Below are positions 17,920-52,582 of a stretch of 64,000 bases of DNA, in pieces (the stretch's first letter is position 1; each line of letters begins with the position of its first letter). Origin of the DNA: an uncultured Solirubrobacterales bacterium (GTDB lineage: Bacteria; Actinomycetota; Thermoleophilia; Solirubrobacterales; 70-9); contig CAVZEV010000003.1 in assembly GCA_963774405.1 (NCBI GenBank), positions 6,386 to 70,385 of the forward strand. The letters run 5' to 3'. The translations under genes and the position numbers were made by a program. The notes under the pieces were generated by a model that was given only the letters and a program-made list of their open reading frames with translations, did no database searches and had not been told where the DNA came from.

Positions 17920-21192
<3,273 letters not shown>

Positions 21193-24808: not shown

Positions 24809-24922
24809 AAATGACGGCCCCAGATCGCCGCCATACTGCGTCCTCAGTCGTCCGAATAGATGAACTATTCGGACTCCCTGCGTCCTTGCCTGGCGTCGCC
24901 TGGACCTCGTCATTCCCAGGCC
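24809..24922 (+). ncRNA. candidate structured cis-regulatory RNA in the menB leader (men-leader motif, copy 1)
   Basis: AAATGACGGCCCCAGA...GTCCGAATAG-atgaa-CTATTCGGAC...GGACCTCGTCATT. It is about 80% identical to the reverse complement of 31048..31160, and two helices are supported by compensatory changes. Confidence 0.5.
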
Positions 24923-27822: not shown

Positions 27823-29571
27823 ATGGACACGACCAACGCCAACACAGCCCTCGCCTCGGCCTTCGCCGAGGAGCTTGCGCGCGGCGGTCTGCGGCACGCG
27901 GTGGTCTCCCCCGGCTCGCGCTCGACCCCGCTGGCGGTGGCGCTCTGGCGCCAGCCGGAGATCGAGCTGAACGTGATCGTCGACGAGCGCTCAGCGGCGT
28001 TCTTCGCCCTCGGCGCCGCGCAGGCGACGCGGACGCCGGTTGCCCTGCTCTGCACGTCGGGGACCGCGGCGGCCAATTACCACCCGGCGATCTGCGAGGC
28101 CGACGAATCGGCCGTGCCGCTGGTGGTGCTGACCGCTGACCGCCCGCCCGAGCTGCGTGGCATCGGCGCCGGGCAGACGATCGACCAGGTAAAGCTCTAC
28201 GGCGAATCGGTGCGCTGGTTCTGCGAAGTCGGCACCCACGAGGCCGACGACGACGGGCTGCTGCACTACCGCTCGGTCGCCTGCCGGGCGCTTGCGGCGG
28301 CGCACGGCGAGACCCGTCCCGGCCCCGTTCACCTCAACCTGCCCTGGCGTGAGCCGCTGGCGCCGCTGCCGGTCGAGGGTGCCGTGACCGCGACCGACCC
28401 GCTCGCCCTTGAGGGCCGCGAGGGCCGACCCCTGACGGCCGTGACCTCGATCGACCGCGAGCCCTCGGCCTTCCTGCTCGACGAGATGGCCGGCCACATC
28501 GGCGACGCGCTCGCCGGGGTGATCATCGCCGGCCGCCAACTCGACCCGGAGCTGCGCGAGCCGCTCGCCCACCTAGCCCGGGCCTCGGGCTTCCCGATCC
28601 TCGCCGAGCCCACCTCGCAGCTACGCTGCGGCCCCCACGACCGCTCCTACGTCGTCGCGACCTACGATCTGCTGCTGCGCGACGAGCACTTCGCCCGCTC
28701 GGTCGTGCCCGACCTGGTGCTGCGCTTCGGCGAGATGCCGACCAGCAAGCCGCTGCGCGCCTGGCTGTCGGCGAGCGGAGCCGACCAGATCGCGATCGAC
28801 CCCTACGGCGGCTGGAACGAGCCGACCAATCGCGCCGCGGCGATCCTGCGCGCCGACCCGACCGAGCTTGCGGCAGGCTGGGCGACGCGCCTGGAGAAGG
28901 AAGAGCGCCCGGCGCCAAAGCGCTGGCTCGACGCCGAGCGCGCCGCCCGCGCGGCGCTCGACTCGGCGCTCGGCGGCGAGGAGATCAGCGAGCCCGCCCT
29001 TCACCATGCCCTAGGTCACGCCCACCGCGACGGCGACCTCGTCTACACCGCCTCGAGCATGCCGATCCGCGACCAGGAGACCTTCCTGCCGCCGAGCGAG
29101 GCCGATGCCTTCTTCCTCTGCAACCGCGGCGCCAACGGCATCGACGGCCTGATCTCCTCCGGCATCGGCGCCGCCCACGCCAGCGGCCGCCCGACCACGA
29201 TCGTCACCGGCGACCTCGGGTTGCTGCACGATCTCGGTGGGCTCGCCGCCCTCCGCGACGTCTCAACGCCGGTCCGCATCGTCGTCATCGACAACGACGG
29301 TGGTGGGATCTTCGGCTTCCTGCCTCAGGCCGACGCGCTCGACGCCGACGAGTTCGAAGCCCTGCTCGGCACTCCTCGCGGCGTTGACGTCGCCAAGGCG
29401 GCGGCCCTATTCGACCTCCCCCACCGCCAGCTCAAATCCCTCGCCGATCTCCCCGACGCCCTAGCCGCCGACACCGGCCTGATTGAGGTCAAAACCAACC
29501 GCCGTACCAACGTAGACGCTCATCGCCGGCTAACTCAAAGCGTTCACGCCGCTCTGACCGACTTGGCGTGA
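27823..29571 (+). CDS. menD: SEPHCHC synthase (ThDP-dependent)
   Basis: 582 aa: ...LRHAVVSPGSRSTPLAVALW...LLCTSGTAAANYHPAICEADESAVPLVVLTADRPPELRGIGAGQTIDQ... Confidence 0.92.
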   Translation: MDTTNANTALASAFAEELARGGLRHAVVSPGSRSTPLAVALWRQPEIELNVIVDERSAAFFALGAAQATRTPVALLCTSGTAAANYHPAICEADESAVPLVVLTADRPPELRGIGAGQTIDQVKLYGESVRWFCEVGTHEADDDGLLHYRSVACRALAAAHGETRPGPVHLNLPWREPLAPLPVEGAVTATDPLALEGREGRPLTAVTSIDREPSAFLLDEMAGHIGDALAGVIIAGRQLDPELREPLAHLARASGFPILAEPTSQLRCGPHDRSYVVATYDLLLRDEHFARSVVPDLVLRFGEMPTSKPLRAWLSASGADQIAIDPYGGWNEPTNRAAAILRADPTELAAGWATRLEKEERPAPKRWLDAERAARAALDSALGGEEISEPALHHALGHAHRDGDLVYTASSMPIRDQETFLPPSEADAFFLCNRGANGIDGLISSGIGAAHASGRPTTIVTGDLGLLHDLGGLAALRDVSTPVRIVVIDNDGGGIFGFLPQADALDADEFEALLGTPRGVDVAKAAALFDLPHRQLKSLADLPDALAADTGLIEVKTNRRTNVDAHRRLTQSVHAALTDLA

Positions 29572-29574
29572 GCC

Positions 29575-29678
29575 AAGGGGTCCGGTGCCCCTCTCCATGA
29601 AGCTTGGCGACCACGCATCGAAGCACCGGGACGATCCAGCTGCGCGACGGCTTCAGGGAGAGGGGCACCGGACCCCTT
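29575..29678. repeat. 104-bp element with perfect 22-bp terminal inverted repeats (MITE/REP-like)
   Basis: AAGGGGTCCGGTGCCCCTCTCC-N60-GGAGAGGGGCACCGGACCCCTT. It fills the gap between the convergent menD and menF stops. Confidence 0.9.
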
Positions 29679-29689
29679 CCCTCACCGCT

Positions 29690-31084
29690 TTACTCGGCCA
29701 GCAGCGGCAGCAGCGCCCCCAGCTTGATCTCCGTCTCCGCCAACTCCGCCGCCGGGTCGGAGCCCGACACCACGCCGACGCCGGCGTAGAGGTGTGCCTC
29801 GCGGTCGCGCAGCAGGGCGCTGCGCAGGGCGACGCAGAACTCGCCGTCCTCGGTGGAGTCCATCCAGCCGACCGGGCCGGCGTACCAGCCGCGGTCCATC
29901 TGCTCGAGCTCGGGGATCGCGGCGAGCGCGGCGGCCCCGGGCTCGCCGCCAACGGCGGGCGTCGGGTGCAGCATGCCAGCCAGCTCGACCGCCGATCGCG
30001 GCTCCGCCAGCTGGGCGACGATCGGCGTCGCCAGGTGCTGGATGTTCGCCACCTTGACGATCTCGGGTTCCTCGCCGGTCTGGACCCAGACGGCGTGCCG
30101 GCGCAGCGAACCGGCGATCCGCTCGGCGACGATCGCGTGCTCGCGGCGGTCCTTGTCGCTGCGCAGCAACTGCTCGCCGAGGTGGTCGTCAACGGCCGGG
30201 TCGGAGCTGCGCCGGGTCGAGCCCGCCAGGGCGACGGTCGAGACGCTCGCGCCTGAGCGGCGCAGCAGCAGCTCGGGACTGGCGCCGATGAAGGCCACCT
30301 CTGGAGTGCCACAGCAGAAGCAGAAGCAAGATGGGAACTGCTCGCGCATCGCGCCGAAGACGGCGGCGGGGTCGTGGGCGGCGCCGGCCGAGACCAGCAC
30401 CTCGCGGGCGAGCACGATCTTCGACATCTCCCCCGCCATGATCCGCTCGGTCGCGGCGCCGATCATCCGCTCGAACTCGCCCGGCGGGCGCACGCTGGCG
30501 ATCTCGATCCGCGAGGTCGGATGGGGATCGAGCAGCGGCAGCGGATCGTCGCGCAGGCTGGAGATCCGGGTTTCGAGCGCGCCCGCCTTGGCATCCGGAT
30601 CGTCGCCGGGACGGACCGCCGTATTGACGGTCAGAAATGTGTCGCTGCCGCTGCGACAGATGGAGACCTCAGGCAGGACCAGCGAGGCGGGCGCGAGCGA
30701 TGACCAGGTAGAGGAGCCACCCCCTTCGGGATCGAACGCGAAACCACCAACCCATACGGCCCCGGCGCCCGGCGGAAGGCCCGATGGCTCGTCCACGACC
30801 CTTTCGCCACCAAGGCATTCGCGCGCTACATCCTTGAATCTGCCCGGCCCGCGCGAGGCCGCCTCGTGGGCAACCCCAAGCGCGGCGAGGGCAAACTCGC
30901 GATCGGGCTCCTCCCAACAGAACCACCGATCAGAGGCCAGCCTCGAGGCGAAAACCGCGGCGCAAGGATCAACGCCCTCGACCGGCACCGTGAGACTTAC
31001 AAAAGCTTTCCTACCCCGGGCGAGAGCGCGCTCGACCGTCGGTCGGAGGCTGGTAAATGACGAGGTCCGGAGGTTGTCAGGCAA
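29690..31084 (-). CDS. menF: isochorismate synthase (start uncertain)
   Basis: ...ALAGSTRR...REHAIV...LHPTPAVGGEP...RGWYAGPVGW.... The TTG at 31084 lies inside the conserved RNA-like element. The next canonical start is the GTG at 30988. Confidence 0.85.
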   Translation of the reverse strand: MPDNLRTSSFTSLRPTVERALARGRKAFVSLTVPVEGVDPCAAVFASRLASDRWFCWEEPDREFALAALGVAHEAASRGPGRFKDVARECLGGERVVDEPSGLPPGAGAVWVGGFAFDPEGGGSSTWSSLAPASLVLPEVSICRSGSDTFLTVNTAVRPGDDPDAKAGALETRISSLRDDPLPLLDPHPTSRIEIASVRPPGEFERMIGAATERIMAGEMSKIVLAREVLVSAGAAHDPAAVFGAMREQFPSCFCFCCGTPEVAFIGASPELLLRRSGASVSTVALAGSTRRSSDPAVDDHLGEQLLRSDKDRREHAIVAERIAGSLRRHAVWVQTGEEPEIVKVANIQHLATPIVAQLAEPRSAVELAGMLHPTPAVGGEPGAAALAAIPELEQMDRGWYAGPVGWMDSTEDGEFCVALRSALLRDREAHLYAGVGVVSGSDPAAELAETEIKLGALLPLLAE

Positions 31085-31160
31085 GGACGCAGGGAGCCCG
31101 AATAGCAGCGCTATTCGGGCGACTGAGGACGCCGCATGGCGACGTCCGGGGCCGTCATTT
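31048..31160 (-). ncRNA. candidate structured cis-regulatory RNA in the menF leader (men-leader motif, copy 2)
   Basis: The minus strand reads AAATGACGGCCCCGGA...GCCCGAATAG-cgctg-CTATTCGGGC...GGACCTCGTCATT. It begins 1 nt after the ilvN stop. Confidence 0.5.
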
Positions 31161-34646: not shown

Positions 34647-36001
34647 GTGAAGCGGACGGTGGCGCTGGTCGCGATCCTGCTGCTCGGGCTGGGGCTGCGG
34701 GCGAATGAGGCATGGGACGGGCGTTCGCCCGTCTTCGACGCCGCCGCCTACGCGACGATCGCGGCGAACCTCGATCGCGGCGACGGGTTCACGCTTGGCC
34801 GCGGCGCAACCCAGCCGGCGAGCAACTACTCCCCCGGCCTGCCGCTCTTCGTCGCCGGGGTCTACGAGGTGGCCGGTGGCGTGCACGAACGCACGGCGCG
34901 GCTCCTGCTCGCGTTGCTCGGGACGCTGTCGGTGCTCTTCACATACCTGATCGGGCGACGCCTGTCTGGACCTGCGGCCGGCCTGATTGGTGCCACGGCC
35001 ATCGCCATCTACCCCGCCCTGCTCGAGTACCAGGGGATGCTGATGGGCGAGCCGCTTGCGGCGACGCTGTTGTCTGGGGCAGTCCTGGCAATGCTCTGGG
35101 CAGACGGTGCAAGACAGACGGATCCGGCGAGCGGGCCTGTCGTGGGGCAGGGGGGCCTGCGGGCAGTCCACGGGCTGTCCTCGACCCCCCTACCCCACGC
35201 CACCCGCTCGTCAGATGGGTGCTGCCAGGCACCCTGCTCGGGGCGCTGGCGCTAGTCCGACCGGAGTACATCGGGGTCGCCTTGCTCGTCAGCTCGGTGG
35301 TTCTTCTAAGGCAGGGGTGGCGCAGCAGCTCGCATACGTGGGTTCAGGCGCTGTTGCTGCTCGCGGGGGTAGTGGTGGTCGTGGCGCCTTGGACGGTGCG
35401 CAATGCGGTAGCGCTGGATCGGTTCGTGCCGGTCTCGACGGGCGGAGGTCAGGTGCTGTTCGCGGGGACGTACCTGCCATCGAATGGCGACCCGGAAAAG
35501 GTCGGGGCCGAGGTGGTCAAACATCACCCGGGATTGTTCGGGCAGCACGCGGTGCAGCGATTGCGGCTGGAGCAGATCCTGGCGCGGTTGGCGCAGCAGC
35601 GCTATCCAAGGATGGAAAGCGACAGGGCGCTCTCGAAGATGGGCAAGGAACAGCTCTGGGACGACCTCAGCGAAGAGCCGCTCGAATACGTCGGCTTCGT
35701 GGCAAAGAAGGTGGCGCGGATCTGGTCGCACGGGCCGCGCGACGTGATGCGCGAGCCGGGCTGGGAGCTGCTGCACTGGCTGCTGCTCGCCTTCGGGCTG
35801 GTCGGCCTGATTGTCCTCGCTGCTCAGCGGCGCTGGGAGGCGCTGCTGATCGCGACGATCTTCGTTGCGATCACCGCGATCAGCACCCTGCTGGTGGCCT
35901 CGCCGCGGCGGGTGCTGGTGATGATGCCGCTGGTCGCGGCCCTGGCCGGCGTCGGGGCGATGGCCTGTCGGGATAGCCTCGCGCGGCGATGGCAAAGTTG
36001 A
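34647..36001 (+). pseudogene. GT-C fold glycosyltransferase (PMT_2/ArnT-like), reading frame interrupted by an 83-bp element
   Basis: The N-terminal ORF 34647..35255 (...FDAAAYATIAANLDRGDGF...SPGLPLFVAG...) and the C-terminal part of ORF 34712..36001 (...VRWVLPGTLLGALALVRPEYIG...) join in frame if 35128..35210 is removed. Confidence 0.75.
35128..35210 (+). repeat. 83-bp quasi-palindromic insertion element (copy A)
   Basis: CGAGCGGGCCTGTCGTGGGGCAGGGGGG...CCCCCCTACCCCACGCCACCCGCTCG. It is about 94% identical to the reverse complement of 36515..36597. Confidence 0.85.
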
Positions 36002-37394
36002 AGGCCTGGCTGCGCGGGCTCCCGGAGCGCCACGGGCGCAGGACGCTGATCGTGCTGGCGGCGATCCTGCTGCTCGGCTTCGGCCTGCGCGCCTATCGCG
36101 TGGTCGAGCCGCTGCCGGTGCCCGGCGACGATGCTCATGCCTATTACGCGCTCTCGAAGTCGCTCTACACCGAAGGCAGCTTCGGCGGGCCGACCTTCCA
36201 CAACCCCAGCGACTGGTCCCCCGGCGCCCCGCTCCTCTACGCGGCGAGCTTCTACGCGACCGCCGGCGCCCGCGAAGGCACCGCCCGCATCGTCGAGATG
36301 CTCCTCGGCCTCGCGACCATCCTCGTCACCTACCTACTCGGCCGCCGCATCTCCTGCCGCCCCGCCGGCCTCCTCGCCGCTCTCGCGGTAGCCGTCTACC
36401 CCCCCTTCATCCACTCCGTCGGCGCTCTCTACTCGGAGCCCCCGGCGATGTTCACGCTCCCCGCCGCGGTCCTCGCTTTCCTCTGGGCCTCCGACGGCCT
36501 GAGCCGCGGCACCTCGAGCGGGTGGCGTGTGGCAGGGGGGTCGAGGACAGCCCGTGGACTGCCCGCAGACCCCCCTGCCACACGACAGGCCCGCTCGCCA
36601 GGTGGCTCGTCCCTGGCTTTTTGTTCGGCCTGACAGCAATGTTCAGGCCCGAGTACCTCCTGGTGGGCGTGGCCTTTGCGGTGCTGGCCCTGATCAGAGT
36701 CGGCCGCGCCCGTGGCTGGAAGCCGGGCCTTGCCGGCGCCGCGCTGCTGGTCGCTGCCCTGCTGCTGCCGATCGTCCCCTGGGCGATCCGCAACCAGATA
36801 GTCCTGCACCGCACGGTGCCGATCTCGACCGGCGGCGGCAAGGCGCTCTACGTCGGCACCTTCCTGCCGGCCGACGGCGAATACCAGCGGGTCAAGGCGA
36901 TCCTCGCCAAGCGCTACCTGCACCGCGAATACGACCCGCACTCCCAAGCCCTGGAAGAAGTCGACCCCGTGCCGCTCTTCAACCGGGTCGCCAAGCGCTA
37001 CCCGGACCTGCCACGCGACTCGGCGCTGGGCAAGATCGGCAAACAGAACTTCTCCCACTGGTTCGGCGAAGACCCGCTCGAATACCTGGCGATGACCGTG
37101 CGCAAGGCCTGGCGGATGTGGAGCGCCGGGATCGGCGAAGCGATGGAAAGCACCGCCGGAAGGGTGATCCAGACCCTGATCGTCGCGCTCGCCCTCGCCG
37201 GTCTCGCCGTGCTCGCCTGGCGGCGTTGGTGGTGGGAGCTGGTCGCGATGGCGACGCCGATCGCGCTCGTCACCGCCGTCGGCGCGATCTCGCTGGCCGC
37301 GCCGCGCCGCAACGAGGTGCTGATGACCTTGATCTTTCCGCTTGCCGCGGCGGCCCTCTCGCGGGGGACGGCGGCCGTATTGTCCAGGCGGTAA
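35989..37394 (+). pseudogene. GT-C fold glycosyltransferase paralog (PMT_2/ArnT-like), interrupted by the same 83-bp element in inverted orientation
   Basis: The N-terminal ORF 35989..36633 (...GDDAHAYYALSKSLY...SPGAPLLYAAS...) and the C-terminal ORF 36522..37394 (...RWLVPGFLFGLTAMFRPEYLL...) join in frame if 36515..36597 is removed. Confidence 0.75.
36515..36597 (-). repeat. 83-bp quasi-palindromic insertion element (copy B, inverted)
   Basis: CGAGCGGGTGGCGTGTGGCAGGGGGG...CCCCCCTGCCACACGACAGGCCCGCTCG. Confidence 0.85.
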
Positions 37395-41782: not shown

Positions 41783-43268
41783 CCTCTTCACCCCCTGTTC
41801 CGGTGCGCCTTTTGCTCTCTCCAGGTGCATAAGGCGCACCGGAGGGGCTGGCGTCGAAGCCGAGGCCCTGCTCGAGGGCGTAGGCGGCGTCGAGGAGCCG
41901 GCGCTCGGCGAAGGCGGGGGCGGCGATTTGGAAGCCGACCGGCAGCTCGGGGCCGCCGGCGGTGGGCCGGGCGAGGCCGGCCGGGATCGAGATCGCCGGG
42001 ATGCCCGCGAGGCTCATCGGCACGGTGAAGAAGTCGTTGAGGTACATCGAGAGCGGGTCGGCGGTCTTCTCGCCAAGTTCGAAGGCGACCGAGGGCGAGG
42101 TCGGGGTTACGACGAAGTCGACCCGGTCGAAGGCGCTCTTGAAGTCGCCGGCGATCTTCGTCCGCACCTTTTGCGCCTGGCCGTAGTAGGCGTCGTAGTA
42201 GCCGGAGGAGAGCGCGTAGGTGCCGAGCATGATCCGCCGCTTGACCTCGGCACCGAAGCCCTGCGCCCGGGTCTGCTCGTACATCTCGATCACGTCGCCG
42301 CTGGAGGGAGCGCGCATCCCGTAGCGGACGCCGTCGTAGCGAGCGAGGTTCGATGAGGCCTCGGCCGGCGCGATCACGTAGTAGGCGGAGATGCCGTGCT
42401 CGGCGTGCGGCAGGGAGACGGTGTCGACCGTGCCGCCGAGGCTCTCAATCTTCTCCAGGGTCGCCTCGAAGACCGTGCGGACCCCGGCGTCGAAGTCCTG
42501 GCTGATCAGGTCGTCTGGAACTCCGAAGCGCAGGCCGGAGAGATCCTCGCGGTCGGGCAGGCCGGGCGATTTGGGCAGGCCGACCGAGGTCGAGTCGCGG
42601 GGGTCCTGCCCCTGCAGGATCACCAGCAGCAGGGCGGCATCGCTGACATCGCGGGTGAAGGGGCCGCACTGGTCCAGCGAGGAGGCGAAGGCGATCATGC
42701 CGTAGCGCGAGATCGCCCCGTAGGTGGGCTTGAGCCCGACGATGCCGCAGAGCGCCGCGGGCTGGCGGATCGAGCCGCCGGTGTCGGTGCCGATCGCCCA
42801 CGGCGCGAGGCCGCCGGCGACCGCCGCGGCCGAGCCGCCCGAGGAGCCGCCGGGAACTCGCTCGCGGTCCCAGGGGTTGAGCACCGGGCCGTAGGCCGAG
42901 TTCTCGTTGGAGGAGCCCATCGCGAACTCGTCCATGTTGGTCTTGCCGAGGATCGGCGCCCCGGCCTCGATCAGCTTGCGCACGGCCGTGGCCGTGTAGG
43001 GGGGCTCGTAGCCCTCGAGGATGCGCGAGCCGGCCGTGGTCGGCACGCCCTCGGTGCAGAAGATGTCCTTGACCGCGATCGGGGCGATGCTCGGCCGCTC
43101 GACCGCGATCGGGCTCGCGCCGCCGTCCTCGTCGCGCCAGAGGTAGGCATTGAGCTCGTCGCCGGCGGCGGCCCGCCGCCAGGCGTCGGCGTACTCGCCC
43201 GCGTCGAGATCGCCCGCGGCCATCGCCCGATGGGCCTCGAGGGCCGTCAGCGTCAGCAGCTCGGTCAT
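41775..43268 (-). CDS. gatA: Glu-tRNA(Gln) amidotransferase subunit A
   Basis: 497 aa with the amidase signature ...[14 protein letters not shown]... Confidence 0.93.
41799..41843. repeat. REP-like hairpin with 13-bp arms (CCGGTGCGCCTT family, copy 3) at the gatA/gatB junction
   Basis: TCCGGTGCGCCTT-N19-AAGGCGCACCGGA. It is translated as part of the GatA C-terminal tail ([18 protein letters not shown]). Confidence 0.85.
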
Positions 43269-44107: not shown

Positions 44108-46000
44108 ATGGCACCGGGCCTCGACGGCCTGCCCGCGGCCGAGCGCGAGCTCGACGTCTCCGGCCCGGTCGCCGAGTTCCTGCGCTCGGTCTCACCGCGG
44201 GCGCTGACCCGGATCAGGCTCGGCCTGCGCGCCTTCGAGTGGCTGCCCTTCCCCTGGCGCTTCAGCCGTCTCGACCCGGCCGGCCGCGAGGACTTCCTGC
44301 GCGGCATGGAGACGGCGCGGTTCGGCCTCTACCACGAGCTGCTGCTGATGGCCAAGGTCTTCGCCACGCTGGGCAGCGCCGTCGCGCCGGAGGTCGAGCG
44401 GCGGATCGGATTCAACGTGAGCTGCCGGCTGGCCGACGGCTCCCGGCCCGAGCCCGCCGCCCCGCTGGGCGCGACTGAGCCGGCGGGCGACGAAGAGGAA
44501 TGCGACGTGATCGTCGTCGGCTCCGGCGCCGGCGGCGCGGTCGCCGCCGCGACCCTCGCCGAGGCCGGGCTCGACGTGATCGTGCTCGAGGCGGGCGAGA
44601 GCTTCAACCGGGAGAGCTACCCGGAGGAACCGCTGGACGCGATCGCCGCCCTCTACCGCGACGGCGGCCTGACGATTGCCGAGGGGCGACCGCCGATCCC
44701 GGTGCCGGTGGCGCGCACCGTCGGCGGCACCACGGTGGTCAACTCGGGAACATGCTTCCGCGCTCCCGATCCGCTGCTCGAGGAGTGGAGCCGGCGCTTC
44801 GGCATCGAGTGGGCAACCGACCTCGACCACGAGTTCAGCGAGGCCGAGGATTTCCTCCGGGTCACCCGACTCGACCCCGAGCGAATGGGACGCAATGGGC
44901 AACTCGCGATGGAGGGAGCAGGCGCGCTCGGTGCTTCCGGCGGCCCGATCTCCCGCAACGCCGGCAGCTGCGTGCAGTGCAGCTCCTGTCCCTTCGGCTG
45001 CGAGATCGACGCCAAGCGCGGCATGCACGTCAGCTACCTGCCGCGCGCCGTGGCGGCAGGCGCACGGCTGCGCACGGGCGTGGAGGCACAGCGGGTCCTG
45101 ATCGAGAACGGCCGCGCGGTCGGGATTCGGCGTGGCGCTTTCTTCCCCCACGTCAGGGAAGAACGCCACACCCAGCAGCCGCATCCCTTTGCCGTGCGGG
45201 CGCGAGTCGCCACCATCGTCGCCGGGGGAGCGCTTGGCACGCCCGAGCTGCTGCTGCGCTCAGGCCTCGGCGGCCGTCGGGTCGGGCGCAACCTCCACAT
45301 CCACCCCGCCTGCTGGGTCGGCGCCCGCTACGAGGAGGAGGTGCGCGGCTGGGACGGCGTGATGCAGAGCTATTACATTGACCAGTGGGAGCCCCAGCGC
45401 CTCCTGCTCGAGGCCACCTTCACCCCGCTTGCCTTCGGTGGCGCCTGGCTCCCCGGCGTCGGCCACGCCCACCAACGCTCGATGCTCGAATTCGGCCACA
45501 TCGGCTCGATCGGCGTCCACCTCTCAGACCAGTCCAGCGGCCAAGTGGGCCTCGCCGGCGACGGCTCCCTCCGAGCCCGCTTCAAGCTGACGAAAGACGA
45601 CGCCGACCGCCTCACCTTCGGCATCGCCCGCGCCGCCGAAATCCACTTCGCCGCCGGCGCCACCGAGGTCTACCCCAACATCGCTCGCGTCGGCACGCTA
45701 ACTCCCGACAGGCTCGCCACCTTCGAGTCGACCCGCTTCAAGCCCTCGGAGTTGCGTCTCGAGGCATTCCACCCGATGGGCACCGCCCGGATAGCTGGCG
45801 AGGGCGACGGGGTCTGCGCCCCCGACGGCTCGGTCCACGGCACTACCGACCTCTACGTCGCCGACGCCTCCCTCTTCCCCACCTCCGTCGGCGTCAATCC
45901 GATGATGACGGTCATCGCCTTCTCCGCCCGTATAGCGGGTGAGCTCGCACAGAGGCGCCGGGTGACCCCTCCCAAAACGAGCGGCAGGAGCCGCTCTTGA
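44108..46000 (+). CDS. GMC-family FAD oxidoreductase (long-chain alcohol oxidase-like)
   Basis: ...CDVIVVGSGAGGAVAAATLAEAGLDVIVLEAG...HPMGTARI...LYVADASLFPTSVGVNPMMT.... Protein-like sequence (LSAAEQRTLSAICAA) continues upstream of the ATG as far as the upstream gene's TGA. Confidence 0.8.
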   Translation: MAPGLDGLPAAERELDVSGPVAEFLRSVSPRALTRIRLGLRAFEWLPFPWRFSRLDPAGREDFLRGMETARFGLYHELLLMAKVFATLGSAVAPEVERRIGFNVSCRLADGSRPEPAAPLGATEPAGDEEECDVIVVGSGAGGAVAAATLAEAGLDVIVLEAGESFNRESYPEEPLDAIAALYRDGGLTIAEGRPPIPVPVARTVGGTTVVNSGTCFRAPDPLLEEWSRRFGIEWATDLDHEFSEAEDFLRVTRLDPERMGRNGQLAMEGAGALGASGGPISRNAGSCVQCSSCPFGCEIDAKRGMHVSYLPRAVAAGARLRTGVEAQRVLIENGRAVGIRRGAFFPHVREERHTQQPHPFAVRARVATIVAGGALGTPELLLRSGLGGRRVGRNLHIHPACWVGARYEEEVRGWDGVMQSYYIDQWEPQRLLLEATFTPLAFGGAWLPGVGHAHQRSMLEFGHIGSIGVHLSDQSSGQVGLAGDGSLRARFKLTKDDADRLTFGIARAAEIHFAAGATEVYPNIARVGTLTPDRLATFESTRFKPSELRLEAFHPMGTARIAGEGDGVCAPDGSVHGTTDLYVADASLFPTSVGVNPMMTVIAFSARIAGELAQRRRVTPPKTSGRSRS

Positions 46001-46023
46001 CTGTTTTGGGAGGGGTCACCCGG
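45958..46023. repeat. compound hairpin with 21-bp outer arms and a 7-bp inner stem
   Basis: CCGGGTGACCCCTCCCAAAAC-GAGCGGC-agga-GCCGCTC-ttgact-GTTTTGGGAGGGGTCACCCGG. It encodes the last ~14 codons and the stop of the GMC gene. Confidence 0.9.
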
Positions 46024-46032
46024 CGCCCCTCC

Positions 46033-46674: not shown

Positions 46675-46708
46675 CGATCCTCCGGTTGAGCTAGGGGTCG
46701 GGCCGACA

Positions 46709-47558
46709 CTACACCCGGGCTCGCGCGGCAGCCAACGTATTTACGAGCAGCATCGCGATTGTCATCGGGCCGACACCGCCGGGCACCGGAGTGATCGCGG
46801 CGGCGACCTCGGCGGCCGCTGCGAAGTCGACATCGCCGACCAGGCCGTCGTCGGTTCGGTTGACGCCGACGTCGATCACGACAGCGCCCGGCTTGATCGC
46901 GTCGGCGCCGAGCAGCCGCGGCGAGCCGACCGCCGCGACCAGCACGTCGGCGCGACGACAGGTCGCCGCCAGGTCGCGCGTGCGGGAATGGCAGACGGTC
47001 ACCGTCGCGTTAGCGGCGAGCAGCAGGCGCGAGACCGGAACGCCGACCAGCTTCGAGCGTCCCACGACGACCGCCTCGGCACCTTCGAGATCGACTCCCT
47101 CGTGCCGCAGCAGCTCCATCACGCCCGCCGGCGTGCAGGGCACGAGGCCGGGCATGCCATGCGCCAGTAGCCCGGCATTGACCGGCGTAAGGCCGTCGAC
47201 GTCCTTGGCCGGATCGATCGCGGCGACGACCCGGTCGGGGTCGATGTGATTGGGCACCGGCAGCTGCACGAGGACGCCGTCGACGTCATCGTCAGCGCCA
47301 AGCTCGGCGACCAGGCCAAGCAGCTCGCGCTCGCTGGTCTCGGCGGGAAGCCCGTGGTGCGCGGATCGCATCCCGGCCTCCTCGCAGGCCCGGTGCTTGT
47401 TGCGAACGTAGACCTCGGAGGCGGGATCGTCGCCGACGATCACGGTGACGAGCAGCCGGGGCGCGGCCCTGCTCGCCCGCGAAGGTCGCCACCTCCCCGG
47501 CCACCCGCTCGCGTACCGAGACCGCCACCGCTTTGCCGTCGATGATTCGCGCTGACAT
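46709..47558 (-). pseudogene. folD: bifunctional methylene-THF dehydrogenase/cyclohydrolase, frameshift near 47455-47461
   Basis: The N-terminus [34 protein letters not shown] is in ORF 47292..47558. The remainder (LLVTV)[23 protein letters not shown]... is in ORF 46709..47443. Confidence 0.88.
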
Positions 47559-47563
47559 CTTTC

Positions 47564-49830
47564 CTATCTCCTCCGGATCGGTGCGTAATCGGCCATCAGC
47601 TTGCGCTCGGTGCCGTCAGCGGAGAAGCGCACGACGACGACGCCCCCCGGCTCGACCGCCGTCACCACGCCGTCGCCGAAGCCGGCGTGGACGACGTCGT
47701 CGCCGGTCTGCAGCTCCAGGGTCGGGCCGGGATCGATCGGCGCCGCGGCTTCGCCCGAGTCCCAGCCGATGCCGGCGGCCGAGCCCGGCGCGCTGGAGTG
47801 GCGCTCGGTCAGCTCAGCAGGGAGCTCGTCGATGAAACGCGAGGGCAGGTTGCGCTCGGAGCGGCCGAAGAGGCTGCGTTCGCGCGCCCAGGTCATGTAA
47901 AGGCGCCGGCGGGCGCGGGTGATGCCGACGTAACAGAGCCGCCGCTCCTCCTCCTCTCCCCCTCTTCCAGGGCCCGCATGTGGGGGAAGGCGCCGTCCTC
48001 GCAGCCGAGGATGAAGACCGTGTCGTACTCGAGCCCCTTGGCGTTGTGCAGAGTCATCAGCGTCACCAGCGACTCCCGCTCGCCGTCGAGCAGGTCGTCC
48101 TGCTGGCTGTAGAGGGAGATCTGCTGCAGGTACTCCTCCAGGGGCGTCAAATCGGCGTTCTCGCCCTCCTGCTCGCGCTCGATGTCGAACTCGGCGGCGC
48201 CGGCGATCAGCGCCTCGAGGTTCTCGGCCCGGCCCTCGGCCTCGACCGTGCGCTCGGCCGAGAGCGCTTCCAGGTAGCCGCTCTCGTTCAGCACCGCCTC
48301 GAGCAGCCCCGCCACCGGACCTTCCTCCTCGGCCCGTTCGCGCAGGCCCGCCATCGTCTCGTAGAAGCGGCCGACCGCCTTGATCGCGCCGCCATTGAGG
48401 CCCGGAACCTCCTCGACCGCCTCGATCACCTCCCAGATCGTCTTGCCTGTGGTGTTGGCGTGCGAGGCGATCCGACCCTGGGTCGTGTTGCCGATTCCCC
48501 GCCGGGGCGAGTTGACGATGCGGGCGAAGGAGACCTGGTCGGCCGGGTTGGCGAGCAGGCTGAGGTAGCCGACCGCGTCCTTGATCTCGGCCCGTTCGTA
48601 GAACTTGGTGCCGCCGATGACCTGGTAGGCGACGTCGAAGCGGTTGAGCGTGTCCTCCAGCACCCGGCTCATCGCGTTGGTGCGGTAGAAGACGGCGACG
48701 TCCTCGCGCTCGACCCCCTCCTCCTCGGCGAGGCGCTCGATCTCCCCCGCCACCCAGCGCGCCTCCTCGTGCTCGTCGGAGAGCTCGGAGAGATGCACCG
48801 GCTCACCGCCGGCGATCTCAGTCCAGATCTCCTTCGGGCTGGCGCTCGCGGTTGTTCGACCACCGCGTTGGCGGCGGAGAGGATCGTCTGGGTCGAGCGA
48901 TAGTTCTGCTCGAGCTTGACCACTTCGGCTTCGGGAAAGTCCTGCTCGAAGTCAAGGATGTTGCGGATATCGGCGTGCCGGAAGCCGTAAATCGACTGGT
49001 CCTCGTCGCCGACCACCATCAGGTTGCCGTGCTCCTCGGTGAGCAACTGCAGCAAGCGGTACTGGGCGTGGTTGGTGTCCTGGTACTCGTCGACGAGGAC
49101 GTGGCGGAAGGTGCGGCGCCAGCGCTTGCGCGCCTCGTCGGAGACCTCCAGCGCGTTGACCGTGCGGACCAGCAGGTCGTCGAAGTCCATCGCGTTGGCC
49201 TCGAGCATGCGCTTCTCGTAGAGCTCGTAGGCCGCGGCGGCGGTTTCCTCGAAGACGCTGCCCTGCGCCTGCGGCGTAGGCGGCGGCGTCGACGAGCTTG
49301 TTCTTGGCGCCGGAGATCTGCGAGCGGATCGCCCGCGGCGGGTAGCGTTTCGGGTCGATCCCGAGCTCGTTCATGCAGCGCTTGAGCATGCGCAGCGAGT
49401 CGGACTCGTCGTAGATGGTGAAGCCGTGCGGGAGTAGCCGAGCCTCTCGGCGTCGGCGCGCAGCATCCGCGCGCAGGCGGAGTGGAAGGTGGTGACCCAC
49501 ATCGCCCGCACCGAGCGGCCGACCAGCGCCCCGACCCGCTCGCGCATCTCGCTCGCCGCCTTGTTGGTGAAGGTGATCGCGAGGATCTCGCCCGGCCGCG
49601 CCGCGCCCGGTCGCCAGCAGATAGGCGATGCGGTGGGTCAGCACCCGGGTCTTGCCCGAGCCCGCGCCGGCGAGGACCAGCAGCGGGCCCTCGCCGTGGA
49701 GCACCGCCTTGCGCTGCGGCTCGTTGAGCCCGGCGAGCAGGCGCTCGGCGCGGTCGGCGCCGGCTTCGATCGGGGCGGCGCCGCCAGGCTCGGGCCCTCC
49801 GGTGGTCTCGGGCTCGCTCTGCAGCGTCAC
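47564..49830 (-). pseudogene. pcrA: PcrA/UvrD-family ATP-dependent DNA helicase, at least 5 frame changes
   Basis: The pieces are [52 protein letters not shown]...[14 protein letters not shown]...NYRST, HLSELSDEHEEARWVAGEI...LMTLHNAKGLEYDTVF, and EEERRLCYVGITRA/MTWARERS. Shifts occur near 49603, 49437, 49268, 48850 and 47955. Confidence 0.88.
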
Positions 49831-50490
49831 CGGCCGAGCATAGCCCGCGAGCGCGGCGGTGAGGCGGCCACCGAGTCAGGCGCAGGCTTCGGCGCTTCTT
49901 CCACGCCTTCGGCGGTGCCGCCGAGCAACAGTTCTTCGACTTCGCTCTTCGCCGCCTTCTTGAAGGCTTCGACGAAGCAGCCGGCGAATTTCGGGGTCGA
50001 CTTTGCCCGCGCCGTTTTCGAGTTCCCGTTCGAGGCCTTCGATCAGCTTCGCCCTGTCGAACTTGGTGAACTTGACGATTTCGTCCAGCTTCCACTGGTC
50101 GCCGTCCTTGACCAGCGCCACTTCCAGCGTCTGTCCGTCGAGGCTGCCGCCCTTCAGGGCGACCTCGGCTGTCGCCTCGGAGCCGTTCGACTTCGACCGC
50201 GACGTCGACCGAGCCCCCTTTGCTCCTTCTCTTTCTCGGCTTCTTCTTCGCACTCGCTTGACTGCCGCCGCGCCCTTTCCTGCGTCGTCTGTTCGATGAA
50301 GTGCTGGGTGTTGAGCTTCTCGCAGTCGGCCGGATCGGTGGTCGTCGCCGAGGTTTCGATCGCTTCTTCGACTTCGTCTTCTGTCGCCCCCGCCGCTGCC
50401 GCAGGCGGCGAGCGCGAGGGCGGAGAGGATCAGGATGCAGGCGGAGGCAGCAGGAGACGCTTGCGCAAGCGGGTCCTTTCGAGTACGCAC
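49827..50490 (-). pseudogene. putative lipoprotein, at least 3 frame changes
   Basis: The GTG at 50490 is followed by the lipobox ILILSALALAAC|GSGGG. Plausible text appears alternately in different frames (EDEVEEAIETSATTTDPADCEKLNTQHFIE; ATAEVALKGGSLDGQTLEVALVKDGDQWKLDEIVKF; AGCFVEAFKKAAKSEVEELL). The last frame ends in a TGA that overlaps the pcrA GTG. Confidence 0.5.
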
Positions 50491-50512
50491 GGACGAGTGG
50501 GCGCAGGCTACT

Positions 50513-51247
50513 TCAGCCACCGGCCGTTGAGCGACCGGTGCGCTCGCGCAGCTCGCTCGTCGCGGCGCCGTCGGCGGGCGTCTCGGCACCGTCGAGCTCG
50601 GCCAGCCGCCGCTCCAGCTCGGCGATCCGCTGGGAGAGCGACTTGATCGCCTCGGCGATCGGGTCGGGCAGGTGGATCCAGTCGGCGTCGGGCCCCTCGA
50701 CCCGCTTGCCGTCGACCTTGACCGGGTGGCCGGGATTGCCGACCACGGTGGCGCCCGGCGGCACGTCCTCGATCACGACCGTGTTGGCGCCGATCTTGGC
50801 GCCGTCGCCGACCGCGATCGGGCCGAGCAGCTTGGCGCCGGAGCCGACGGTGACGTTGTCGCCCAGGGTCGGGTGGCGCTTGCCACGCTGAAAGCCGGTG
50901 CCACCCAGGGTCACCCCCTGGTAGAGCGTCACCCGCTCGCCGATCTCGGCCGTCTCGCCGATCACGACGCCCGAGCCGTGGTCGATGAAGAACTCGCGGC
51001 CGACGCTGGCCGCGGGATGGATCTCGACCCCGGTCACCGATCGGGTCAGGTAGGCAAGCACCCGCGGCACGATCGGCACCCGGGCCTCGAGCAGAGCGTG
51101 GGCGAGGCGGTGGGCGAGCAGCGCCTGCACGCCGCCCCAGCTGAGCAGGATCTCCAGGCTGGAGACTCCCTGGGCGGCGGGATCGCGATCACGGGCCGCG
51201 GCGACATCGGCGCGCACCTCGATCACCAGCCTCTTCCAGCGATTCAT
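50513..51247 (-). CDS. cysE: serine O-acetyltransferase
   Basis: 244 aa with hexapeptide repeats: ...[33 protein letters not shown]... Confidence 0.9.
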
Positions 51248-52169
51248 GGTGAGAAGAAGGGTAGGGACACGTAGCGCTCGCCCGAGTCGCAGACGATCGT
51301 CACCACCCGCTTGCCCTCCATCTCGGGCCGCGCCGCCACCTCCAGCGCCGCCCTGACGTTGGCGCCGGCCGAGATGCCGGCGAGCACGCCCTCACGCTGA
51401 GCGACCAGGCGCGCCGTCTCCAGCGCCTCCTCGTCGCCGACCGAGACGATCTCGTCGATCACGTCGCGATCCAGCACCGAGGGCACGAAGCCGGCGCCGA
51501 TCCCCTGGATCTTGTGCGGCCCGGGCCTGCCACCCGAGAGGACAGGCGATGTCGCCGGCTCGACCGCGACGATCAGCGTCTCCGGGCTGCGCTCACGCAG
51601 AACCCCGCCGACGCCGGTGATCGTCCCGCCGGTGCCAACGCCGGCGACGAAGGCGCCGATCTCGCCGTCGGTGTCGCGCCAGATCTCCTCGGCGGTGGTG
51701 CGCCGGTGCGCCTCCGGGTTGGCCGGGTTGGAGAACTGCTGCGGCATGAACCCCTTGCGCTGCTCCGGATCTCCTCGGCCAGCTCGACCGCCTCGGTCAT
51801 GCCGCCGAGCGAGGGCGTCTCGCGCACTTCGGCCCCGTAGGCGCGCAGCAGCTTGCTGCGCTCGCGGCTCATCCCCTCCGGCAGGGTGAGGATCAGCTCG
51901 TAGCCGCGCGCCGCGCAGACCATCGCCAGGGCGATCCCGGTGTTGCCGCTGGTCGGCTCGACGATCACCGACTTCCCCGGCTCGATCAGCCCCTCCGCCT
52001 CGGCCGCGTCGATCATCGCCACCCCGATCCGGTCCTTGACCGACCCGCCCGGATTGAGCTGCTCGAGCTTGACGCAGACCTCGCCAGGCAGCCCCTCGCC
52101 GAGCCGCGAGAGCGTGACCATCGGCGTCTCGCCGACAACCGCGGCGGCGGTCAATCCAATCCGACTCAT
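51244..52169 (-). pseudogene. cysK: cysteine synthase A (O-acetylserine sulfhydrylase), frameshift near 51765-51775
   Basis: The N-terminal ORF 51573..52169 carries ...[16 protein letters not shown]...[10 protein letters not shown].... The C-terminal part of ORF 51244..52239 carries ...[15 protein letters not shown]...[10 protein letters not shown].... An ATGA overlap is present at both ends. Confidence 0.88.
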
Positions 52170-52582
52170 GATCGACCGGCCCCAATGAGACGGACAGGAC
52201 AGCCAAGGCCTTTCGCCTTCGCGACGTCGAGATCGCCACTCACCAAGAGTTCGATTTCGCCGTTAATCTGAGCCGTGGCTGCAATCAACGCGTCCGGCAT
52301 AGCCAACGCTGCGCTCTCGGCCCGCAGTCGAGCGGCGCAATCTCCAATCTCGATGTCGACCGGGACTATGGTGGAGATGAGGTCGGCGAAGAAGCCCACG
52401 ACCCGCTCCTCGTCGTGATGACCGAGCCGCGCGCCCGTGAGCACCTCCGCATAGGTGATGACCGAGACGAAAAGGCGATGGGAGGCGAGGATCTCGCGAA
52501 CCGCTTCGTCTGCGGCGTCATGCAGCTCGTCGGAGCGATCGAGAAACCCGACGACCACGCTCGAGTCGAGGACTACCGCCAC
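52166..52582 (-). CDS. vapC: PIN-domain toxin VapC
   Basis: 138 aa: [21 protein letters not shown]...ITYAEVLTG...DALIAATA.... The stop overlaps the cysK ATG (ATGA). Confidence 0.8.

Follow-up and report, generated by a model that had tools for sequence, protein, structure and literature searches.

Two adjacent glycosyltransferase genes share an insert

We analysed a 64,000-nt stretch of contig CAVZEV010000003.1 from an uncultured Solirubrobacterales bacterium (the window), in which two adjacent genes encoding GT-C glycosyltransferases, here gene 1 and gene 2, are each interrupted by a copy of the same hairpin-forming element (Table 1). In the assembled sequence this pair appears to split both genes, an arrangement suggestive of ribosomal bypass; our results indicate that it is an ordinary translated insert with one missing base per copy.

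The two copies of the element, A and B, are 83 nt long each. An initial annotation, made from the sequence alone, had described them as reverse complements lying in opposite orientations in adjacent paralogs and splitting both frames, and our coordinates match that description; it had counted about five mismatches between them, whereas copy A differs from the reverse complement of copy B at 4 positions. A repeat search of the window recovered the two as an inverted pair of 85 nt with 95% identity, and a pattern search for the pair gave 0 matches in shuffled sequence. Each copy folds as a single long interrupted hairpin, with a folding energy of -70 to -79 kcal/mol (z -4.9 to -7.7).

The products of genes 1 and 2 match the Pfam model PMT_2 with 36 and 43 bits (gathering cut-off 26.1) and share 36% identity; homologs carry the names 'glycosyltransferase family 39' or 'ArnT-like' in their sources. 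Three further claims of the initial annotation also held. Removal of the 83 nt leaves open reading frames (ORFs) of 423 aa in gene 1 and 440 aa in gene 2, the two insertion points are at most one codon apart in the alignment of the paralogs, directly upstream of an invariant RW(L/V)xPG motif, and no target duplication was found around either window copy.

Table 1. Positions in the window of the two glycosyltransferase genes, their inserts and the sites discussed in the text
Feature	Position	Strand	Description
Gene 1, GT-C (PMT_2 / GT39-like) glycosyltransferase	34647..36001	+	frame of GTG 34647 runs to 35135; -1-shifted frame runs from 35136 to stop 35999-36001
Copy A, hairpin repeat	35126..35212 (core 35128-35210)	+	sense in gene 1; cmsearch 88.2 bits, E 4.6e-17; single deletion, at model position 11; -69.5 kcal/mol
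Missing T site (family GCGGG-T-CCTGTC)	35135..35136	+	sole lesion shifting gene 1
G GGG GGC heptamer	35150..35156	+	in phase with upstream frame of gene 1; formal -1 slippery pattern
Gene 2, GT-C (PMT_2/PMT) glycosyltransferase	35989..37394	+	frame of ATG 35989 runs to 36589; shifted frame runs from 36590 to stop 37392-37394
Copy B, hairpin repeat	36513..36599 (core 36515-36597)	-	antisense in gene 2; cmsearch 96.5 bits, E 6.8e-19; deletion also at model position 11
C CCC CCT heptamer	36570..36576	+	in phase with upstream frame of gene 2
Missing A site (complement of family T; orthologs CAGG-A-CCCGCTCG)	36589..36590	+	sole lesion shifting gene 2

The inserts belong to a dispersed family of hairpin repeats

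We consider it highly probable, as one joint judgement on the whole explanation by an in-frame repeat, that the two inserts are members of a scattered GC-rich hairpin repeat of Solirubrobacterales, 84 nt long (88 nt with its GG and AG flanks). More than 230 copies were retrieved overall from species-representative genomes and from metagenomes of the Joint Genome Institute (JGI). In the species-representative genomes the query was the 20-nt loop core, which gave more than 114 stretches, a lower bound, and often several repeat loci per genome. Among the at least 114 matches listed, all but two (L066 and L114) came from Solirubrobacterales, Conexibacteraceae or unclassified Actinomycetota metagenome-assembled genomes (MAGs); those two were rejected as family loci, being unrelated chance matches to the loop 20-mer. 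A second pattern, which contains the T discussed below, gave at least 120 further stretches in the JGI metagenomes.

The aligned copies have the consensus GG CGCGCGGGTCCTGTCGTGGGGCAGGGGGGCCTGCGGGCAGTCCACGGGCTGTCCTCGACCCCCCTGCCCCACGCCACCCGCGCG AG. Elements range from 84 to 90 nt at about 77% GC; of 115 copies, 67 have a core of 84 nt and another 21 one of 87 nt. Conservation across the family reaches 2 nt past the core on each side (GG...AG), and the unit in our model is 88 nt. Among 62 distinct 84-nt copies we found a hairpin of 30 pairs in which 97% of the cells are canonical and 14 pairs show compensatory double changes; the observed value was equalled in 0 of 300 column shuffles. While the stems covary in sequence, two loops are constant, the apical one and an asymmetric internal one (TCCTGT opposite CCA); constancy of the loop is partly an effect of ascertainment, as the loop 20-mer had served as bait for the copies. 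A covariance model was built from 42 copies from other genomes (34-pair hairpin plus conserved loops), with the window copies outside the training set. A scan of the whole window with this model, filters off, returned copies A and B alone, at 88.2 and 96.5 bits (E 5e-17 and 7e-19), and the runner-up scored 24 bits. Both window copies thus pass as members by the model, and neither has the canonical 84-nt core with T at model position 11.

The initial annotation had offered a site-specific miniature inverted-repeat transposable element (MITE) as one explanation. The MITE-like part of that proposal stands, the element being multi-copy, dispersed and palindromic; it is not, however, specific to this site, and it lacks a target duplication. 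Among 83 non-redundant copies, direct repeats of at least 3 nt flank 2 and repeats of at least 4 nt flank 0, in agreement with the absence of a target duplication at the window copies. Conservation of the flanks in the same set is confined to the element-proximal GG/AG and a weak AG..GCG on the right, with no other target motif, and the aligned flanks of copies elsewhere, which the initial annotation had proposed to compare, share these positions. The terminal 8-9 bp are inverted repeats whose sequence covaries between copies (CGCGCGGG, CCCGCGGG, CCAGCGGG and others), and the size and copy number of the family are as in MITEs.

Most copies lie at apparently intergenic places and a sizeable minority inside genes. 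By a conservative test that combined ORFs with codon bias, on borders taken from the alignment, at least 26 of the 115 copies are intragenic and in frame; the codon-bias hidden Markov model (HMM) is coarse and under-calls membrane-protein genes, so these fractions are approximate. In a subset of intergenic copies (among them L009 5681, L049 6803, L061 6133, L078 5731 and L104 4018) the right flank carries AGAC..(N ~10)..TTGACG or CTGACG 15-20 nt past the hairpin; these loci may be orthologous, or the motif may mark a longer composite element that includes a -35-like box.

A search of the region against Rfam 15 (E up to 10) gave no family at gathering score, just generic hairpin (miRNA-precursor) matches far below threshold, and we found no literature on such a repeat in Solirubrobacterales. 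On these two grounds the family is apparently undescribed so far.

A single missing base breaks each frame

In each window copy one missing base alone breaks the frame. Both copies lack the T of GGGTCC, the base that in the family closes the outer helix by pairing with an A. Among the 115 copies this T is present in 109, substituted in four and deleted in two, which are the two of the window; a scan of the metagenomes for the T-less variant gave 0 matches, against the at least 120 for the pattern with T. Re-insertion of the T in copy A produces a 451-aa ORF in gene 1. Likewise, re-insertion of the A at 36589/36590 produces a 468-aa ORF in gene 2, which is the length of orthologs that carry the insert (P0019, P0021, P0065 and others). 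Compared with the copy on JGI contig L179, copy B shows the missing T and one substitution, and no other difference.

The element is in-frame coding sequence in relatives

We found that in relatives the element is ordinary in-frame coding sequence of these glycosyltransferases. The 120 best homologs of gene 2 are 81-92% identical to it; about 94 of them have a short loop at the site (empty) and 15 are filled with a loop of 35-42 residues. All 15 filled homologs, which come from several sources, are uninterrupted and 468-485 aa long. The peptide SRGWRVAGGSRTARGLPAGPPATRQDPRA found in filled homologs is what copy B encodes in the frame that gene 2 of the window uses upstream of the insert. When translated, the insert contributes 28-29 extra residues rich in Gly, Pro, Arg and Ala, an in-frame loop that follows from an element length that is a multiple of three.

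Searches by tblastn with the window proteins gave high-scoring segment pairs running across the element in a single frame at 13 genome loci (L001, L002, L008, L013, L023, L042, L063, L064, L067, L076, L097, L109 and L115) and at 10 metagenome loci (L123, L140, L143, L169, L179, L180, L195, L197, L201 and L224). Orthologs of gene 1 that are filled and in frame include L002, L008, L042, L076, L097, L143 and L179. In L001, gene 2 is filled (84 nt, in frame) and gene 1 is empty (421 aa); in L002, gene 1 is filled (84 nt, in frame) and gene 2 is empty. L076, L143 and L179 have an in-frame insert in each of the two genes, oriented as in the window; two of them, L143 and L179, are contigs of JGI metagenomes and presumed to be short-read assemblies. 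The empty sites that the initial annotation had suggested looking for in orthologs therefore exist, in gene 1 of L001, in gene 2 of L002 and in most of the best gene 2 homologs. Empty and filled alleles differ by a net 78 and 90 nt, and the exact borders of the insertion are ambiguous because the surrounding loop varies in length between species.

In an AlphaFold2 model of the filled ortholog P0019 (a weak model, mean predicted local distance difference test score, pLDDT, 58), the insert occupies residues 173-200 and is unstructured between two helices, with pLDDT below 50. This suggests that the tolerated site would be a loop between two transmembrane helices before RW(L/V)xPG.

Other hosts also read through the element in uninterrupted ORFs, namely RecG, a UvrD/AddA-like helicase and other GT-C-like membrane proteins. 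The peptide encoded by the element varies with orientation and frame (GSRTARG, VEDSPW, GSPRAV) and is not its conserved part. The in-frame helicase copies lie at L068 ~5062 and L012 ~4793 for RecG, and at L110 ~4523 and L018 ~2892 for the UvrD/AddA-like protein. An 837-aa ORF for a GT-C-like membrane protein at L009 4726-7239, with orthologs in L049 and L061, contains two in-frame copies in opposite orientations, 572 nt apart, the second of which is trailed by partial repeats of the element end. Two gene 2 homologs carry divergent inserts. In P0117 the element is translated partly in one frame and partly in another (SRGWRG|VRGVEDGPWPARSAP|LTPRQDPRA), a reading that requires a pair of compensating indels within it, and P0076 has an insert with another loop sequence and a family-type end (..PRDRTRA). 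From these two inserts it follows that the family is broader than the 20-mer used to retrieve it.

Breaks away from the element were seen in two MAGs that look like long-read assemblies by contig naming. In L002 an epimerase gene at ~1378-2232 has an isolated frameshift (284 aa, against 389 aa in relatives), and in L038 gene 1 is split at ~2141-2146, near residue 204, off the element site.

Consensus error, deletion or recoding

The assembly of the window is indel-prone, mainly in a patch at 46700-52250. Parts of the same Pfam models fall in consecutive fragments of differing frame for PcrA/UvrD (five switches), CysK and FolD. By position, the five switches of pcrA/uvrD lie at 47955-49593, and folD breaks at ~47455, cysK at ~51765 and menC, as judged from ORF translations, at ~27217. 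On two syntenic JGI contigs (L117 and L118) pcrA, folD, cysK and menC are all intact, and comparison of cysK, pcrA and folD with such contigs showed at least nine 1-2-nt indels private to the window, in varied contexts. These lesions of housekeeping genes come with no other signs of decay, which is the signature of consensus error.

We infer that the missing base is probably a consensus error too, one that depends on context and arises where this indel-prone assembly meets a very stable hairpin; if so, the organism has two intact genes and simply translates the insert. Nanopore sequencing is known for skipped and miscalled bases at inverted repeats (PMC7229812). This, together with the identical context in both copies, makes a systematic cause plausible. 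Several points weigh against this reading or against the wider explanation by an in-frame repeat. The other indels of the window appear to be random and are concentrated at 46-52 kb, and the 6.5 kb around the glycosyltransferase genes is otherwise clean, with the two element lesions and one intergenic indel. Two random errors at one homologous base are not credible; either the error is systematic for the hairpin, therefore, or the deletion is real. Dozens of copies in other long-read MAGs (MFD bins) have the T read correctly, so a systematic error must be one peculiar to this assembly, through its platform or its coverage. As for the repeat itself, the constancy of its loops is subject to the ascertainment effect given above, and we infer the tolerance of the loop, the mode of mobility of the repeat and its inversion in place, which is set out below.

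Alternatively, a real one-base deletion may have spread between the inverted copies, 1.3 kb apart, by short-tract gene conversion, leaving both genes as recent pseudogenes or split genes. We regard this as possible but doubtful. The same base is gone from both copies, which is beyond random error, in a region free of other coding indels, and the T is read correctly by other long-read MAGs; moreover, paralog copies do homogenise in L063, where they are 1 nt apart and in the same orientation, so that gene conversion between the paralogs, another option of the initial annotation, is plausible in itself. To produce the window copies, however, the conversion tract must cover position 9 yet end before a copy-specific difference at position 18, that is, within 9 nt, and, the deletion aside, the orthologs of copy B in L001 and L179 resemble it more closely than copy A does. 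Both genes are conserved without other decay, at 82-92% identity to intact orthologs, T-less copies number 0 among the more than 230 others, and the same assembly has many frameshifts in housekeeping genes.

It is very improbable that the 83-nt copies are real and that both glycosyltransferases are still made by recoding, whether by a -1 frameshift on in-phase heptamers or by a hop between matched codons (CCG...CCG in gene 1, GGC...GGC in gene 2). The heptamers at 35150 and 36570 do have the form X XXY YYZ in the right phase, the gap has matched codons on either side, the hairpin is highly stable, and a -1 shift or hop would alter few residues of a disordered loop and keep RW(L/V)xPG in frame. 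The phase of the gene 1 heptamer, however, is an automatic result of a base lost upstream of a codon-aligned G6 run and no evidence of recoding, and the gene 2 heptamer has the same phase in intact orthologs (L001 sequence), where a -1 slip would be harmful; none of the homologs compared has the frame change. Heptamers composed of G alone or of C alone generally make poor shift sites in bacteria. A palindrome is expected to contain short GC-rich codon matches by chance, and there is no stop codon after the putative take-off codon, unlike in T4 gene 60. A programmed bypass would call for a non-triplet gap that is conserved in homologs, but every other copy in these genes is a translated insert of triplet length, for which recoding is needless. 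Bypass, or removal of the insert at the RNA or translation level, had been raised by the initial annotation; it is not supported, and what the annotation had named as refuting it was observed, namely a normal length of 84 nt, a multiple of 3, ordinary in-frame coding sequence in filled orthologs from more than 20 independent assemblies, and copies at many other loci, most of them apparently intergenic. If recoding did occur, the repeat would be a recoding cassette, a bacterial chromosomal insert tolerated through recoding inside a translated mobile hairpin.

Other indel sites in the window were also noted. A lipoprotein gene at 49.9-50.5 kb is probably also hit by an indel. For the tRNA gene at 58125-58200 (-), ARAGORN reported a 4-base anticodon (8-nt loop) and Rfam a normal tRNA (54.8 bits); one T taken out of AGTGCG would restore the canonical anticodon stem, and this is probably another indel error. 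A methylation-type motif, GGWCC, is present at the menC site and in the element, but was rejected as a driver of indels, given its 135 sites and the lack of one near the other frame switches.

Orientation, conversion and proposed history of the inserts

Orthologs differ in the orientation of the element. In gene 1 it is antisense in L063 and sense elsewhere; in gene 2 it is sense in L109 and antisense elsewhere. The RecG copy occupies the same site in antisense orientation in L068 and in sense orientation in L012 and relatives. Because orthologs of one gene differ in this way, the opposite orientations of copies A and B need not mean two independent insertions. The L063 copies (4698 and 6570) share one orientation and differ by 1 nt, at the T position (T vs C), and their near-identity suggests recent copying or gene conversion between the paralogs. 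From the presence/absence polymorphism in both genes it follows that there have been gains or losses after the paralogs diverged.

On the evidence of these comparisons, the repeat would settle without target-site duplication and keep its loops while its stems covary. Its triplet length would let genic copies be translated as a loop of 28-29 residues, and the site shared by the two genes would be a loop that tolerates a 28-residue insert, present in some lineages and absent in others. Recombination between the hairpin arms would invert the asymmetric interior in place, and copies in two paralogs may homogenise each other.

We think it unlikely that the hairpin serves chiefly as a functional cis-acting signal in RNA or DNA, be it a terminator, an element of processing or stability or a site bound by protein, that is selected at each site and regulates the glycosyltransferase genes through the genic copies. 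Conserved structure with compensatory changes and constant loops would fit such a signal, but covariation is equally expected of a mobile hairpin recognised as folded single-stranded DNA. Positions past the hairpin are conserved (AG..GCG) and copies are kept at orthologous sites across species; against this, orthologous sites also show presence/absence polymorphism and the same gene can hold either orientation. Copies occupy all contexts (tandem, divergent, convergent and intragenic) without a consistent orientation to neighbours, and there is no Rfam match. Terminator-like placement was considered and rejected on these mixed contexts and orientations, as called with the coarse codon-bias HMM.

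Comparison with known systems

The closest functional analogue is the Rickettsia palindromic elements (RPEs), likened here by their description; a relationship in sequence is not expected. RPEs are dispersed palindromic repeats, many of which lie in frame within unrelated protein-coding genes, where the added peptide is tolerated (reviewed in PMC10969869). The likeness lies in a palindromic repeat that is in frame in unrelated genes and preserves the ORF, as is the case here in the GT-C paralogs, GT-C-like proteins, RecG and UvrD-like proteins. RPEs are about 100-150 bp long, AT-rich, found in obligate intracellular alpha-proteobacteria, and encode a conserved peptide per family, whereas the present element measures 84-90 nt at about 77% GC, belongs to soil Actinomycetota, and is read in either orientation and several frames without conservation of the peptide. 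The family may thus be seen as a GC-rich, free-living counterpart to the RPEs, whose copies repeatedly sit in frame within loops, in membrane glycosyltransferases as well as in DNA helicases, and one that appears to flip in place and to undergo homogenisation from paralog to paralog. It could be used as a natural experiment to ask which loops of proteins accept 28 added residues and by what means the hairpin repeats of Actinomycetota move.

Other repeats resemble the element in part. Repetitive extragenic palindromic (REP) sequences and the REPINs they form, which are mobilised by RAYT (IS200/IS605-like) transposases, are likewise short, GC-rich, imperfect palindromes in many copies, mostly intergenic, with compensatory changes and without target duplication. 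REPs, however, measure 20-40 nt, usually lie outside genes and in many cases form REPIN pairs with a linked RAYT gene, whereas the present element is one long 30-bp interrupted hairpin, and a substantial share of its copies is genic and in frame. MITEs such as ERIC, Correia/NEMIS and BOX are also small non-autonomous repeats that fold as RNA hairpins, and bacterial MITEs occasionally form in-frame fusions with ORFs (PMC10969869). Classical MITEs have target-site duplications and terminal inverted repeats that are conserved in sequence and bound by transposase, in contrast to the covarying terminal stem and absent duplication seen here.

At face value the window also resembles the bypass elements of T4 gene 60 and of Magnusiomyces mitochondria (byp), in that a structured, non-triplet insert lies within an ORF between matched flanking codons. 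In those systems the gap is conserved and required; here it occurs in the window assembly alone, the inserts elsewhere are in frame, and no stop follows take-off. Small inversions associated with hairpins, in which the loop flip-flops between inverted-repeat arms, are well known in plastid DNA. The orientation of the asymmetric interior, which differs between orthologous sites with the same flanks, is reminiscent of such inversions; independent re-insertion at the same loop would be an alternative.

Other features of the window

At gathering score, Rfam reported a tRNA and nothing else in the whole window. Two structured-looking 96-nt copies, 80% identical (..CGTCCTCAGTCGYCCGAATAG....CTATTCGGRCTCCCTGCGTCCTTGCC..), lie at 24819-24914 (+) and 31056-31151 (-), each intergenic and just upstream of a gene in the same orientation; they are a candidate leader or cis-regulatory RNA, without an Rfam match. 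A 63-nt inverted repeat (89%) at 59185-59247 and 59429-59491 falls in a stretch of about 500 nt that looks non-coding, and the codon-bias HMM found no coding signal over 1.6 kb at 52574-54215. GC-rich intergenic hairpins at 20693-20743, 41797-41847, 29568-29685 and 45953-46028 (GGTGCGCCTTT..AAGGCGCACC and others) are terminator-like and unrelated to the 84-nt family.

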